A DNA stretch of 64,000 nucleotides, taken from assembly GCF_904830955.1 (NCBI RefSeq), contig NZ_LR882970.1. One strand, 5' to 3'. The stretch comes from Planktothrix tepida (lineage in GTDB: Bacteria; Cyanobacteriota; Cyanobacteriia; Cyanobacteriales; Microcoleaceae). Position numbers and translations under genes: made by a program. The notes under the pieces were generated by a model. It searched no databases, had not been told where the DNA came from, and worked only from the letters and a program-made list of their open reading frames with translations. The stretch's first letter is position 1. Every line of letters begins with the position of its first letter. Shown piece by piece: positions 1,590 through 6,050 of the stretch.

Positions 1590-1700
1590 CTTTGGGTATA
1601 ATTTGGATCTGATCAACCCGTTCTTTATACAAATTTAACAGCGAATCTAATAAAGAATCAGACAAATAATGGGGTTATAATCCTAAATTCAAAAATGAAA
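1590..1700. repeat. Degenerate ~110-bp copy of the sqdB 3' end (direct repeat with 4890-5000); contains the spurious 63-aa ORF 1474..1665(-)
   Basis: By eye, tttgggtataatttggatctgatcaacccgttctttatac...aatggggttataatcctaaat aligns at about 85% identity with 4890-5000 (tttaggcataatttgggtattatcaacccgttccttatac...aatggggttgtaatcctaaat). The 63-aa ORF translation [17 protein letters not shown]...PKVL matches the SqdB C-terminus [29 protein letters not shown]. Confidence 0.7.
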
Positions 1701-1768
1701 ATATAGAAGCTCAAAAAAAAGTTTTCTGAACGGAAAAAGGAATCCCTGTGAGGGTTAATAGGGTCTGA

Positions 1769-3739
1769 TTATTGATTTTTCTGCTGGTTTTTTTGGGCTA
1801 CTGCTTCATGATTTGTTCGATAAATTTTTAGTCGATCTTGACTTTCAGGATAAATAAAAGAATCTTTAGGAATAGATTCAAGTAAATTAATAGATTGTTT
1901 CCATTTTTGTTCTGATTCCTGCCAAACACTCAGAGATTCTGGAGGATTTTGCAGCATAACTGATGCTTCCATAGCAAGTTTTTTAGCAGATTCTAAATCA
2001 TTTGTTGCTTTTTGTTCTTTATTTAAAATTTGGCTAATGGAGTTATAATCTTTTTGATAAATTTGTAATTTTTGGTTGATTTTTTCAGAGTCAGAATAAT
2101 TTTTAGGTATTGCTTCTAATAGTTGAATAGCATCTTGCAATTGAGTTTGAGCTTGTTGCCAAACCGTTAAAGGATGGGGAGGATTTTCAATGAGTTTGGA
2201 TGCTTCTACTGCTAACTTTTCAGCCGTATCTAAACGACTTTGAGGAGTTTCTGAAGCCAAAATATTTGGATTTTCTTGCTTAGACTTAAAAGGATTAAAA
2301 ATTAACAGTCCAAGTCCTCCTAATAAGATTACAGCAGCAACAATTATCATTAACTGACGAATTTCTTTTTCCTTTTTCTGTTTTAATTCAGCTTCGCGTT
2401 GATGTCGCAATTCTTCCTGTTGCTGACGTTGTAATTCTTCTTCCCGTTGACGCTTTAATTCTGCTTCTTGTTGACGTTGTAATTCTTCTTCCCGTTGACG
2501 TTTTAATTCTTCCTGTTGCTGACGCTGTAATTCTGCTTCTTGTTGACGCTTTAATTCTGCTTCTTGTTGACGTTGTAATTCTTCTTCCCGTTGACGTTGT
2601 AATTCTTCCTGTTGTTGACGCTGTAATTCTAATTCCCGTTGACGCTGTAATTCTGCTTCTTGCTGGCGTTGTAATTCTTCCTGTTGTTGACGCTGTAATT
2701 CTAATTCCCGTTGACGCTTTAACTCTGCTTCCTGTTGACGCTTTAATTCTGCTTTTTGCTGGCGTTGTAATTCTGACTCTTGTTGACGTTGTAATTCTAA
2801 TTCCTGTTGACGTTGTAATTCTAATTCCTGTTGACGCTGTAATTCTGACTCTTGTTGACGTTGTAATTCTAATTCTTGCTGACGCTGTAATTCTAATTCT
2901 TGTTGACGTTGTAATTCTAATTCTTGCTGACGTTGTAATTCTAATTCCTGTTGACGTTGTAATTCTAATTCCCGTTGACGTTGTAATTCTAATTCCCGTT
3001 GACGTTGTAATTCTTCTTCCTGTTGACGCTGTAATTCTTCTTCCTGTTGACGCTGTAATTCTAATTCCTGTTGACGTTGTAATTCTGCTTCTTGCTGACG
3101 CTGTAACTCAAGGGAAGTTTGAATTAATTGTTCATACTGTTCATTTAAACGCAAGCGATAAGTTTGCAAATGAGCAAAAATTGAATTAATATTAATTTCA
3201 GATTGAGTAATTAAAGGATTAGCAGAGGTTAAATTAAGGGATTGTTCAAACTGCATTAAAGAATCAATTAAGCGACTCCAATCATATTTTTCTATAAATT
3301 CTCTACTATCGTTCTCATCTGTCCAGTTGTTTAATTCGATTAAAATAATATCGACTAAATAGCAGAGAGCATTTTTAATCACGGGATATTGTTCAGAATC
3401 AAAGTAATATTCTAGTAACTCAACAAGATTCAATAATAACCCGCTATCAATAGCAATCTGATTCATCAAATCTAGGCGTTTAGCATATTGAATTTTCTCT
3501 TGTTTTGCAGTATCTTGATTAGCATCCATGAACGATAACTGATCAAGCGCACCAAAAACTGAATGATTTCTTTTCTCGTCGTTGATTTTAGTATTTATGG
3601 TTTTTAAATCGGGTTTAATTTCTTGTATAAATTGCAAAATATTAGAAGAGTCAAGTTCAGAACTGCTAAGAGATAATTGTATTTTTTCTACGATATTAAT
3701 TAGCTGATTTTTTAAGCTTAAAACTTTGACAACATCCAT
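1769..3739 (-). CDS. Coiled-coil membrane protein (656 aa) with about 29 tandem octapeptide repeats (ELQRQQ[EL][AE]), a single TM helix, and a C-terminal domain with an internal duplication
   Basis: The ORF is long. Residues about 213-445 are ELELQRQQ/EAELQRQQ/EEELQRQQ repeats. A TM segment (IIVAAVILLGGLGLLIF) follows. A C-terminal module of the form ENPPxxLxVWQxxxxxWxxxIxLLExIPK occurs twice. Confidence 0.6.
   Translation of the reverse strand: MDVVKVLSLKNQLINIVEKIQLSLSSSELDSSNILQFIQEIKPDLKTINTKINDEKRNHSVFGALDQLSFMDANQDTAKQEKIQYAKRLDLMNQIAIDSGLLLNLVELLEYYFDSEQYPVIKNALCYLVDIILIELNNWTDENDSREFIEKYDWSRLIDSLMQFEQSLNLTSANPLITQSEININSIFAHLQTYRLRLNEQYEQLIQTSLELQRQQEAELQRQQELELQRQQEEELQRQQEEELQRQRELELQRQRELELQRQQELELQRQQELELQRQQELELQRQQELELQRQQESELQRQQELELQRQQELELQRQQESELQRQQKAELKRQQEAELKRQRELELQRQQQEELQRQQEAELQRQRELELQRQQQEELQRQREEELQRQQEAELKRQQEAELQRQQQEELKRQREEELQRQQEAELKRQREEELQRQQQEELRHQREAELKQKKEKEIRQLMIIVAAVILLGGLGLLIFNPFKSKQENPNILASETPQSRLDTAEKLAVEASKLIENPPHPLTVWQQAQTQLQDAIQLLEAIPKNYSDSEKINQKLQIYQKDYNSISQILNKEQKATNDLESAKKLAMEASVMLQNPPESLSVWQESEQKWKQSINLLESIPKDSFIYPESQDRLKIYRTNHEAVAQKNQQKNQ
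2400..3110. repeat. 24-bp tandem DNA repeat array (about 29 units) encoding the ELQRQQ octapeptide repeats
   Basis: Units of ttgacg(c/t)tgtaattct(a/g/t)(a/c)ttc(c/t)(c/t)g repeat with few substitutions, in frame, throughout the interval. Confidence 0.8.
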
Positions 3740-3855
3740 TATTATACCTCCTGGCTAGTCGGATGAATACTTATCTAACTGTAATTTACCATAATATTTT
3801 CTTTAGTAGAAAGTTAAAAGTATCTCATTTTCAGCGAGAATTCCTAAAACAATAT

Positions 3856-4332: not shown

Positions 4333-4336
4333 AAGC

Positions 4337-4765
4337 TTAACTTGTCTCTAATGGAGTAATAATTTCAAATTTTTGCGATAAGTCTGTATGTTGAAATTCA
4401 TGAAGACTAAAATGTCCTTTTTGATCGACTGATGAAGCAATACCATCTGTCTTGTCAATGATTCCTTTTGCAAGATGAGTTCCTAATGTTTGACTGATAT
4501 TAGGTCGGTTTTTTCTTAGCTGATTATAGCGTTGTTCTGCATGGTTTTGAGTATTAAATAATGACAGAGCATAACCTTGACAACATTGTTGAGGTGTATT
4601 AAATTTTCGGTGAGGTTTTATGATCAAAACAGGTAAAAAACTATTTTCTGACTGTTCCTGATTTTCCTCAAATACAAACCGATAAGCTGTCATTTCTATG
4701 GGTTGATAATCTGTAGGTGGACAATTAGAAAGTTCATTAATATGTTCTTGATACTTAAACGTCAA
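4337..4765 (-). CDS. Hypothetical protein (142 aa), no recognisable domain
   Basis: ORF with operon-like spacing to 3856..4332. No signal peptide or TM segment. Confidence 0.45.
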   Translation of the reverse strand: MTFKYQEHINELSNCPPTDYQPIEMTAYRFVFEENQEQSENSFLPVLIIKPHRKFNTPQQCCQGYALSLFNTQNHAEQRYNQLRKNRPNISQTLGTHLAKGIIDKTDGIASSVDQKGHFSLHEFQHTDLSQKFEIITPLETS

Positions 4766-4862
4766 TCACGACCCTCCCGATTCAGTCTATCATAACACTT
4801 TACAAAACCCAAAGCTTACTGTAGAGAACCTAAGCTTTCTCTACAGTAAACATGATCCTAAA

Positions 4863-6050
4863 TTAACCGGGATTACGCCATAAGACTTTAGGCATAATTT
4901 GGGTATTATCAACCCGTTCCTTATACTTAATAGCGAAATTCAACAGCGAATCTAACAAAGAATCCGATAGGAAATGGGGTTGTAATCCTAAATCCAATAG
5001 ATTGGTATTTTTAGCGTTGAAATAATGGTCTTCTAATTCAACACGGGGATTAGGAATATTCTCGACTTCCACATCTAATCCTAAAGCAATTCCCGCTTTT
5101 TTCACCATCATGGCTAAGTCACCGACGCTATGTAATTCGGTAAACTGATTAAAGACGCGGAATTGTCCAGAATCCGCCGGATTTTCTAATGCTAATTCAA
5201 TACAGCGTACCGTATCCCGAATATCTAAAAAGGCTCTAGTTTGTCCGCCTGTTCCATAGACCGTTAAGGGATGACCAATAGCGGCTTGAATACAGAAACG
5301 GTTTAACGCAGTTCCAAACACACCATCATAGTCGAGACGGTTAATTAACAACTCATCCATCCCCGTTTCTTCCGTCAGAACCCCATAAACAACGCCTTGA
5401 TTTAAATCCGTTGCCCGTAAACCCCAAATTTTACAGGCAAAATGGATATTATGGCTGTCATGTACCTTGCTGAGATGATAGAAACTGCCGGGTTGTTTGG
5501 GATAGGGTAAAGTATCTTTACGACCATTATGTTCGATGGTAATATAGCCTTCCTCAATATCAATATTGGGGGTTCCATATTCTCCCATCGTTCCCAACTT
5601 CACCAAATGACAATCGGGAAAATTTTCCCGCATCGCATATAACAGGTTGAGGTTGCCAATAACGTTATTTGCTTGGGTGAGAACGGCGTGTTCTCTATCA
5701 ATCATTGAGAATGGTGCAGAACGTTGTTCTCCAAAGTGAATAATGGCTTGCGGTTCAAACTTGAGTAAACTCTTGATCAGGAAATCGTAGTTATTGATAT
5801 CCCCAATAAACAGGTCAATAGACTTTCCTGTTAAATCTTTCCAACGTTGAATCCGTTGCTGAATCGGGGCAATAGGGGTTAACGTATCAATACACAGTTG
5901 TTGATCCCAGTGACGTCGAACTAAACTATCCAGAATACCGACTTCATAGCCACGATTGGACAAATACAACGCTGTGGCCCAACCGCAGTAGCCATCACCA
6001 CCAATAACCAGGACTTTCATAAATACACTTGTTGAATCTTGATGTGCCAA
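4863..6050 (-). CDS. sqdB: UDP-sulfoquinovose synthase (SQD1/SqdB, NAD-dependent epimerase/dehydratase family)
   Basis: The N-terminus [21 protein letters not shown] is the characteristic SqdB GGDGYCGW Rossmann motif. A length of 395 aa is typical. YHLSKVHDS matches the SDR YxxxK active site. Confidence 0.9.

Follow-up and report, generated by a model that had tools for sequence, protein, structure and literature searches.

The stretch downstream of sqdB in Planktothrix tepida PCC 9214 is a hypervariable cassette slot, and the duplicated sqdB 3' end found there is a genuine old scar, left when DNA was placed downstream of sqdB with sqdB itself kept intact. We analyzed 64,000 nucleotides of this strain (the window, to which all coordinates refer) and compared them with related loci, designated here by L numbers. 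The explanation that we favor, with some reserve, is a homology-anchored displacement of the sqdB 3' end at a hotspot for defense cassettes. The locus has an ordered layout, in which a block of cpcT, sqdB, a terminator and a leader is followed by slot 1, a coiled-coil gene, slot 2 and a KGK-ccsA block.

The initial annotation of this DNA had placed a repeat of the sqdB 3' end, of about 85% identity, at 1590-1700. This was borne out by a local alignment of 1540-1760 against 4840-5060, in which 1589-1692 (104 nt) paired with 4885-4997 (113 nt) across a single 9-nt gap. The alignment had a score of 112, as compared with 18.1 ± 2.4 (maximum 29) for 500 shuffles. The identity to the sqdB 3' end is ~86% in the ungapped core only and 79% when gaps are counted; a repeat search recovered this pairing in two blocks, one of 62 nt (85%) and one of 42 nt (86%), and no exact run exceeds 14 nt. 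When the sqdB frame is followed, with 41 against 45 protein letters aligned, the similarity reaches about 1566-1707. On the basis of the alignment, the repeat search and the in-frame reading, we describe 1566..1707 on the minus strand (core 1589-1692) as psi-sqdB', a displaced and decayed copy of the last ~45 codons of sqdB. The functional copy of the duplicated segment, comprising the last ~47 sqdB codons and the stop, lies at 4863..5006 on the same strand, so that 1566-1707 and 4863-5006 flank the bracketed genes as direct repeats. Apart from the modest identity, nothing speaks for a chance similarity or an assembly artifact, and this explanation can practically be dismissed: the score exceeds that of the shuffles by ~39 SD, the relic still shows the reading frame and motifs specific to SqdB, and it also occurs in an independent complete assembly, GCA_904830925.1.

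The relic carries TAA where sqdB has a Gln codon, and it has lost both FAI, part of an NF[A/S]x stretch that is kept at full length in 80 of the 80 functional SqdB tails examined, and a Trp that is invariant across the same 80 tails, indicating that it is a dead gene tail. A 63-aa ORF at 1474..1665 on the minus strand, previously regarded as a relic of the SqdB C-terminus, does carry the sqdB tail, reads on into PKS antisense and is not a gene. Nor does the relic begin right after the LLM/thioesterase (TE) gene, as had been stated; the two overlap, on opposite strands, by the final ~7 codons of that gene. Divergence of the relic at first and second codon positions amounts to 14/84, or ~0.19 per site, and P. 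tepida and the L083 type are separated by a dS per lineage of ~0.21, suggesting that the scar is about as old as the split of these two lineages.

The functional sqdB gene (4863..6050, minus strand; likely start ATG at 6020, giving a UDP-sulfoquinovose synthase of 385 aa) is intact, as judged from profile matches and conservation. It matches NCBIfam NF041015 with an E value of 1e-139 and 465.5 bits, which is below the curated 575-bit cut-off of the model, and it also matches Pfam Epimerase. Its nucleotide identity to other Planktothrix sqdB genes is 88-94%, with a dN/dS of 0.05. The gene is followed by an intrinsic terminator hairpin (4814..4851, minus strand) with a 15-bp stem and a T-rich tail, which is conserved in all Planktothrix loci; no second copy of it was found elsewhere in the window or the related loci. 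Next comes the leader of the A/B cassette (4766..4813, minus strand), delimited by homology breakpoints and sequence, in which a candidate extended -10-like box, TGTTATGAT, at 4788-4796 and a candidate ribosome-binding site, GGGAGGG, at 4771-4777 were recognized by eye. Homology to genomes that lack A/B stops at 4802-4816 (4802 in most), which marks the proximal edge of the variable slot.

Slot 1 of the window holds two co-oriented genes on the minus strand, A (4337..4765, 142 aa) and B (3856..4332, 158 aa), with A upstream and 4 nt between them, an order that is kept in L096 and L098. Judging from its sequence, the pair is a PD-T4-10-like toxin-antitoxin defense module. Protein A matches the PADLOC profile PDLC04023 (E value 1.3e-35) over positions 11-146 of 148, and B matches PDLC04024 (E value 1.5e-34) over only positions 2-128 of 353 and Pfam DUF6575 (PF20215) over only positions 22-122 of 218. 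These PADLOC matches (E values of the order of 1e-35 and 1e-34) gave substance to an early guess that the cargo could be a toxin/immunity module. PD-T4-10 of E. coli ECOR65 is a validated toxin-antitoxin abortive-infection system (Vassallo 2022, PMC9519451), in which A is the antitoxin and B the toxin (PMC9519451). The pair in the window resembles it in having a full-length A, a B with the DUF6575 N-terminal core, the order A-B with near-abutting genes, and a presence in defense neighborhoods, since A/B pairs, which are under purifying selection, were also found within unrelated ones.

The two systems differ in the length of B. Homology of the B gene of the window to PD-T4-10B covers the N-terminal ~128 positions of the latter; a full-length B was not found, as the gene stops at 158 aa and no remnant occurs downstream. 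Given the 353 positions of the profile and the 1604 bp spanned by the E. coli operon, the C-terminal ~60% of the toxin is absent from this short-form DUF6575 protein, which makes the transfer of the toxin role to B uncertain. Homologues of B are mostly 150-170 aa long with a conserved core at aa 1-125, and the short form is common among the relatives found. The dN/dS of B is 0.15, and its model, with a pLDDT of 88, gave no match to solved folds.

Protein A looks, in its structural model, like an ADP-ribosyltransferase/RES-like fold with a conserved R-S-E triad. Among the 65 members of the A family, the candidate catalytic-type residues R29, S68 and E123, all three located on predicted strands, are conserved in 64, 65 and 58, respectively, and H118 and C62 are invariant. 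None of the 65 members matched Pfam at E<=1, and protein A had no match among PDB sequences. In comparison with the RES/ART-fold toxins MbcT, ParT, Xre-RES and DarT, A differs in having no sequence-profile match to RES or ART families, and also in that the A protein of PD-T4-10 is the neutralizing partner, not the toxin.

The third bracketed gene (1769..3798, minus strand; ORF 1769-3739) encodes a coiled-coil membrane protein of 656 aa and has its own leader of ~60 nt, as recognized from the ORF, its repeats and the shared leader. The bracketed genes are as first described: a coiled-coil/TM protein of 656 aa and ORFs of 158 and 142 aa, the last two 4 nt apart. A 24-nt tandem repeat occupies 2380-3106 of the coiled-coil gene with 30.3 copies, and the dN/dS of the gene is 0.27-0.45. 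The protein had no match in Pfam, PHROG or PDB, and its N-domain was found in only four clusters, of which every one with a source name is from Planktothrix. The coiled-coil leader is common to the window, L002, L093 and L101. Collinearity with the genomes that carry only A/B stops at 3919, within the variable C-tail of B, and homology to the coiled-coil leader of other genomes begins at 3798; these breakpoints delimit a junction stretch specific to the window (3799..3919, minus strand) between B and the leader. Specific to Planktothrix, the coiled-coil gene is a resident that anchors the locus, not cargo.

The content of the slots varied widely among Planktothrix loci. The slot is empty in L004 and L005, and in L003 and L083-L091 it holds only A/B, collinear after sqdB at ~90% nucleotide identity, with neither the coiled-coil gene nor the repeat. 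The coiled-coil gene directly follows sqdB in L009 and L092, with nothing but this gene in L009. It comes after a pair of 243- and 162-aa genes in L002, L093 and L102, and after an AAA+DUF4276 pair in L101; elsewhere, the slots contain HEC-01, a toxin-deaminase or a PARIS-like pair. A/B and the coiled-coil gene therefore occur apart, and without repeats, in relatives, which does not agree with the earlier view of the three genes as a single cargo unit. Relatives with all three genes and no flanking repeats had been named as evidence against an insertion; the genomes with A/B alone, lacking both the coiled-coil gene and the repeat, come close to this case.

In L008 and L092, as in the window, an intact sqdB has a displaced orphan of its 3' end farther downstream, and the tails of L008 and L092 are scars independent of that in the window. 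In L008, a 125-nt copy of sqdB[-46..+78] with 86% identity lies distal to an ATPase pair; a 27-aa vestige of the 162-aa gene comes next, and after it the 465-aa gene that abuts sqdB in L005. In L092, sqdB[-215..-177] is fused to [+59..+98] immediately after the coiled-coil gene, and this tail passes on to the leader and the 243/162-aa cassette, arranged just as they are behind sqdB in L002, L093 and L102. The left edges of the three tails differ, at about -141 in the window, -215 in L092 and -46 in L008, so that homology-anchored recombination accounts for them better than a fixed att site does. At the illegitimate joint of L092, microhomology is only 2-3 nt; the joint in the window is obscured by decay.

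Phage 21 and e14 in E. coli icd are integrative elements that duplicate the 3' end of their target gene; a diverged tail restores the gene and a pseudo-tail is left at the far end. They carry their own integrase gene, and their att sites have a fixed extent and a defined core of identical sequence. The sqdB locus resembles them in that the 3' end of a protein-coding target is duplicated, with a displaced pseudo-tail at the far end. The segment had at first been taken for an old, decayed island, that is, a site-specific element with its own sqdB 3' end and a three-gene cargo that later lost its integrase. Such an element would account for the direct repeats of a gene 3' end that flank the insert, for the target gene restored in frame, and for the scars at one site in three genomes, as at a preferred attachment site. 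We nevertheless consider it quite unlikely. An old scar of insertion is real, but a search for integrase and transposase genes found none between the repeats, none over 20 kb on the side of sqdB and none in the variable region that follows sqdB in any related locus (~20 loci), in line with the earlier remark that no integrase remains; past the PKS gene there is an IS605-type TnpB, the sole gene of a mobile element in the vicinity. No att-like core was found in any locus, and the three scars share neither an identical core nor a fixed extent. The separable cargo genes described above also differ from the icd case, and protein A had no match by tblastn in phage and plasmid collections.

The nearest relative of the relic is the P. 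tepida sqdB tail itself, and the two share the Glu codon of KERVD, which occurs among Planktothrix only in P. tepida and P. serta. That the relic groups with the resident allele is also compatible with a purely local event, in which a tandem duplication or unequal crossover from inside sqdB was followed by deletion and decay of the second copy, and no foreign DNA was involved. Differences in the relic are distributed over the three codon positions as 10/4/16, a bias that simple decay after an in-genome duplication would explain as well, so that it does not show a foreign origin of the relic. A local event, which we regard as unlikely, would need several extra deletions to remove the duplicated copies of A, B and the coiled-coil gene, and L092 and L008 hold different cassettes proximal and distal to the scar, unlike a simple tandem duplication.

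The position of the scars also bears on an integron-like arrangement, in which a recombinase encoded in trans would insert cassettes at the sqdB terminator/leader, with the repeats serving as its recombination sites. The slot-1 cassettes do lie behind a conserved leader with a TGTTATAAT box, older cassettes are distal, and the terminator hairpin lies within or next to two of the three scars. This reading is highly improbable, as a gene resembling IntI was not found, the cassette ends have nothing like attC, the crossover point is not fixed, and the hairpin occurs nowhere else in the window or the related loci. The cassette ends have no shared motif, the only common sequences being the sqdB leader, the coiled-coil leader and the KGK flank; in this, as in the lack of an IntI integrase, the locus differs from an integron. 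A recombinase encoded at another site of the genome might conceivably have acted here in trans. A broader proposal, which we hold to be quite doubtful, is that Planktothrix has a dedicated integron-like loading platform with a fixed promoter, made up of the sqdB tail, terminator and leader, where new cassettes are inserted on the proximal side and earlier ones move back. The loader would be an unrecognized recombinase elsewhere or a recombinase-free mechanism that systematically duplicates the 3' end of the anchor, and the three tails would be its footprints.

Under the favored homology-anchored displacement, 1566-1707 would be the old sqdB 3' end, displaced by incoming DNA that recombined with sqdB as a homologous anchor. 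The donor was most likely another Planktothrix with different content at the same locus; neither a donor genome nor a pre-insertion P. tepida-like genome was found. The incoming piece would have brought a full replacement sqdB tail, the terminator and downstream genes, and its far end would have joined illegitimately within the resident sqdB at about codon 350, so that the resident tail was shifted downstream, where it decayed. The same product would result if a circularized fragment integrated by a single crossover. The event would be one episode in the history of a hypervariable slot region, in which small defense or toxin modules come and go and new ones enter at the sqdB-proximal end. By homology to E. 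coli, A of the PD-T4-10-like pair now in slot 1 would neutralize B, and phage infection would release a growth-arresting activity, leading to abortive infection.

A later illegitimate deletion or rearrangement probably fused the relic to the 3' end of the neighboring PKS gene. The flank outside the insert (1..1586, plus strand) is the 3' part, with the LLM-TE domains, of a 1663-aa PKS gene, as recognized from Pfam and NCBIfam matches and from the full gene in L082. Homology to the nearest PKS orthologue (L094) stops at 1552, and the final ~11 codons of the PKS gene are new sequence that reads through the relic in antisense. The joint between the clipped PKS 3' end and the stop-codon end of the relic (1553..1565) is therefore illegitimate, and the PKS 3' end and all DNA beyond the relic stop codon were clipped. 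The older DNA beyond the relic, kept after the tails in L008 and L092 and diagnostic there, was erased by this junction. An empty site with LLM/TE adjoining sqdB, expected under the initial annotation, was sought in related genomes and none was found; since the junction clipped both sides, the LLM/TE gene is not the empty-site partner.

The displacement has parallels in Rhs, CDI and T6SS loci. For T6SS effector-immunity arrays of V. cholerae, illegitimate recombination facilitated by homology has been proposed (Kirchberger 2017, PMC5361080), and Rhs C-terminal displacement, as cited there (Jackson 2009, PMC2935791, via PMC5361080), provides a precedent. In those systems, as proposed here, a conserved upstream part anchors the incoming DNA, a new 3' end and downstream genes arrive, the old 3' end and older cassettes are shifted distally as orphans, and arrays build from the proximal end; no integrase takes part, homology-facilitated illegitimate recombination being the proposed mechanism. 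The sqdB locus differs in that the anchor is a housekeeping lipid-synthesis gene with a non-polymorphic tail, so that the displaced tail is a functionless scar, not an orphan toxin tip, and in that the cargo consists of anti-phage/TA cassettes, not cognate immunity genes, in a filamentous cyanobacterium. Like defense hotspots between core genes, the locus has a fixed position, with sqdB on one side and KGK-ccsA on the other, and strain-dependent systems (PD-T4-10-like, HEC-01, PARIS-like, deaminase toxin). It differs from them in its very small slot (0-4 kb), which is split by the resident coiled-coil gene, and in the explicit displacement scars of the flanking core gene preserved here.

The locus extends PD-T4-10, a system that is experimentally validated and mechanistically blank, to cyanobacteria in a short-B form, and the modeled 'antitoxin' A, as a putative ADP-ribosyltransferase/RES-fold protein with an R-S-E triad, offers a testable lead. 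Displaced tails of a housekeeping gene give both the order and the direction of cassette turnover, with new cassettes proximal and old ones distal. This proximal-in, distal-out pattern is already documented for Rhs and T6SS loci; we know of no description of it with a housekeeping-gene anchor or in cyanobacterial defense hotspots. The scar is a dated record of the renewal of an anti-phage repertoire in a bloom-forming cyanobacterium, in one slot and with no element-encoded recombinase.

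The 3′ end of sqdB (6050..4863 on the minus strand, defined by its ORF and profile matches) occurs a second time in the window. Local alignment of 1540-1760 against 4840-5060 paired 1589-1692 with 4885-4997 (104 versus 113 nt, one 9-nt gap), and a repeat search split this pair into two gap-free blocks, 85% and 86% identical. The duplication of the sqdB 3′ end reported in the initial annotation was borne out, as the alignment scored 112, far above 500 shuffles (18.1 ± 2.4, maximum 29). Based on translation in the sqdB frame, which gave 41 protein letters for the copy and 45 for the live tail, the copy extends over about 1566-1707. 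It is a dead gene tail: a Gln codon has become a stop, the residues FAI are missing from a stretch that is full length in all functional SqdB tails examined (80/80), and a Trp invariant in those same 80 tails is lost. The complete assembly GCA_904830925.1 also carries this relic. Such short relics are missed by SqdB tblastn at E<=1e-3 and are detected by nucleotide self-search. No further sqdB-like remnant scored above shuffles in the gap between the B and coiled-coil genes, upstream of the relic or beyond it in the PKS gene.

The relic grouped with the genome's own sqdB tail, suggesting that the donor came from this lineage or a near relative. The codon-position bias of the relic differences (10/4/16) was considered as a test for a foreign allele and rejected as non-discriminating, since post-duplication decay and synonymous drift of the live copy predict the same pattern. 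At first and second codon positions the relic differs at 14 of 84 sites. The resulting value, about 0.19 per site, is similar to the dS on each lineage between P. tepida and Planktothrix of the L083 type (0.42/2), which makes the scar old, with an age roughly that of the split between them.

On the far side of the relic, the natural end of the PKS gene (KS-AT-LLM-TE, 1663 aa), ~10 codons long, is gone and has been replaced by ~11 novel codons, partly antisense to the relic (1553-1586). The closest orthologues of the gene (L094 and L095; 81% amino acid and 85.6% nucleotide identity) share homology with the window no further than ~1552; they are known from 1.5-kb metagenome contigs only, and these carry no sqdB. 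The break in homology and the novel antisense codons show that the joint between the PKS gene and the relic is an illegitimate junction, at which the original PKS end and all sequence past the stop codon of the relic were lost. KGK, ccsA and a 465-aa gene, which are neighbours of this region in other Planktothrix, were found neither in the window nor in the 10 kb beyond it, as seen in L082, the locus with the full PKS gene. An empty site, in which the LLM/TE gene directly adjoins sqdB, was not found, and none is expected.

We compared sqdB loci from 80 species genomes, together with contexts reached via homologues of B and of the coiled-coil protein and by scanning metagenomes. In genomes without A (142 aa) and B (158 aa), the two proteins encoded between sqdB and the 656-aa coiled-coil gene, homology to the window ended 47-61 nt after the sqdB stop (4802-4816; 4802 in most), just past a strong terminator hairpin. 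The hairpin was ruled out as a genome-wide repeat or recombination site, being present only downstream of sqdB. What follows sqdB varied widely. No gene separates it from KGK-ccsA in L004, or from the 465-aa gene in L005; L003 and L083-L091 have A and B only, at ~90% nucleotide identity to the window, about equal to that of sqdB, and are collinear with it to 3919, inside the variable tail of B. The coiled-coil gene stands alone in L009, is preceded by a 243-aa and 162-aa pair in L002, L093 and L102, and by an AAA ATPase and DUF4276-like pair in L101. At further loci, sqdB is followed by a HEC-01 pair, a deaminase toxin or a PARIS-like ATPase pair. This variation makes the locus a two-slot cassette hotspot, in which the coiled-coil gene is the resident middle anchor. 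The earlier view of the three bracketed genes as one unit does not hold, as A and B occur alone in L003 and L083-L091 and the coiled-coil gene alone in L009.

The 243/162-aa cassette recurs at L002 11309-12537, L093 8677-9908 and L102 1350-2575. The N-terminal 160 residues of the 243-aa protein match the Pfam Phycobilisome protein family (PF00502, E 3e-22), and the 162-aa partner has no family match; a phycobiliprotein-like fold is an odd find within a mobile, TA-like cassette. Read by eye, the cassette-free state of L004 looks like a deletion between two 7-nt ATTTTGT copies flanking the coiled-coil segment in L009 (sites downstream of sqdB at L004 ~11235-11260 and L009 13230-13260).

Two other loci carry sqdB-tail scars of their own. 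In L008, an ATPase pair separates sqdB from a 125-nt copy (86%) of sqdB[-46..+78], which takes in the terminator; past the copy lie what remains of the 162-aa gene (27 aa, 24/27 identical) and then the 465-aa gene that adjoins sqdB in L005. One L008 repeat copy was equivocal on lineage affinity (90.8% to its own copy versus 91.7% to L009). In L092 (P. agardhii), sqdB[-215..-177] (97%), joined to [+59..+98], lies after the coiled-coil gene and continues directly into a conserved leader, an internally deleted 243-aa gene and the 162-aa gene, the order found after live sqdB in L002, L093 and L102. These displaced tails mark the old sqdB end and its old downstream content, which newer DNA has moved further from the gene. 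The three scars have unequal left edges, at about -141 (window), -215 (L092) and -46 (L008).

No integrase or transposase was found in the bracketed segment, in the 20 kb next to it on the side of sqdB or in the slots of related loci, and the window has no tRNA gene; an IS605-type TnpB lies just past the PKS gene. No motif was shared at cassette ends, the only shared sequences being the sqdB leader, the coiled-coil leader and the KGK flank. The absence of recombinases, the variable repeat extents, a longest exact run of 14 nt between relic and live tail, and the separable cargo genes argue against a fixed att site used by an integrase. The insertion proposed in the initial annotation is supported in part, as a real, ancient scar of displacement but not as a single integrase-borne unit. 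The window structure matches 3′-end displacement as in Rhs loci and V. cholerae T6SS effector-immunity arrays, where it has been attributed to homology-facilitated illegitimate recombination (PMC5361080). By analogy, a homologous crossover would occur within the conserved sqdB gene, and the far end of the incoming DNA would join illegitimately inside the tail of the resident gene; a single crossover of a circularised fragment would yield the same structure. A purely local duplication is a less likely origin for the window relic.

A matches the PADLOC profile PD-T4-10_A end to end (E 1.3e-35), and B aligns with PD-T4-10_B over the N-terminal 128 of its 353 positions (E 1.5e-34) and also matches Pfam DUF6575. 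In E. coli ECOR65, PD-T4-10 has been validated as a toxin-antitoxin system of two genes that protects against T-even phages by abortive infection; B is toxic and A is the neutraliser (PMC9519451). These matches agree with the earlier guess of a toxin/immunity cargo, and by homology the A/B pair is inferred to be a TA-type abortive-infection module. The E. coli operon measures 1604 bp, so its B has over twice the length of B here, which lacks the C-terminal ~60% of that toxin; the partner roles of A and B are therefore uncertain. The short B is no truncation artefact, given that its relatives are mostly 150-170 aa (conserved core at residues 1-125, variable tail), that A homologues (47-56% identity) precede short-B genes in unrelated defence neighbourhoods, and that both genes are under purifying selection. 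The structure of B, predicted with confidence (pLDDT 88), matched no solved fold, and A is predicted to be an ART-like protein. The proteins are found with identical sequence in P. tepida PCC 9214. Exact-sequence matches of A and SqdB were confined to P. tepida assemblies, tblastn of A against plasmid and phage collections gave no match, and no PHROG family was found for A, B or the coiled-coil protein. A distant A/B pair in L096 (1-12486) lies amid AAA_15/21 ATPases, a reverse transcriptase with a faint Cas6 match, a DUF2281-PIN pair and RAMP genes, a CRISPR type III-like defence island.

The 656-aa protein consists of an N-domain, confined to Planktothrix in the homologue search, ~30 octapeptide repeats, a TM helix and a C-terminal domain without a family or structure match; a sequence search of its two domains against the PDB gave no significant match. 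Depending on the species, the protein is 599 to 656 aa long; in P. agardhii L092 and P. serta L093 it seems to be split or truncated. Its gene differs from that in assembly GCA_904830925.1 in the 24-nt repeat array (2380-3106): of 72 mismatches over 12 kb, 45 are at 2445-3040.

Across sqdB, a second variable island of ~10.7 kb (6700-17400) lies between cpcT and a phytase-like gene, encoding DUF218, two or three STAND-NTPase and TPR pairs, a STAND-kinase-TPR protein and a CHAP-RTX protein. L083 and L091 lack the block, and there the TPR gene or the phytase-like gene adjoins cpcT. Within it, 8162-8681 has 17 mismatches to the other P. tepida assembly, in a 444-aa TPR gene paired with a STAND NTPase. 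P. agardhii GCA_021554785.1 carries a group II intron-type reverse transcriptase (RVT_N, RVT_1, GIIM, HNH) between cpcT and sqdB (L092 6850-8628).

Taken together, the repeated sqdB tail is a genuine and ancient scar of displacement, set in a hotspot for defence cassettes. The locus offers a clean and directional record of how its cassettes turn over, and a short-B variant of PD-T4-10 whose A is predicted to be ART-like.
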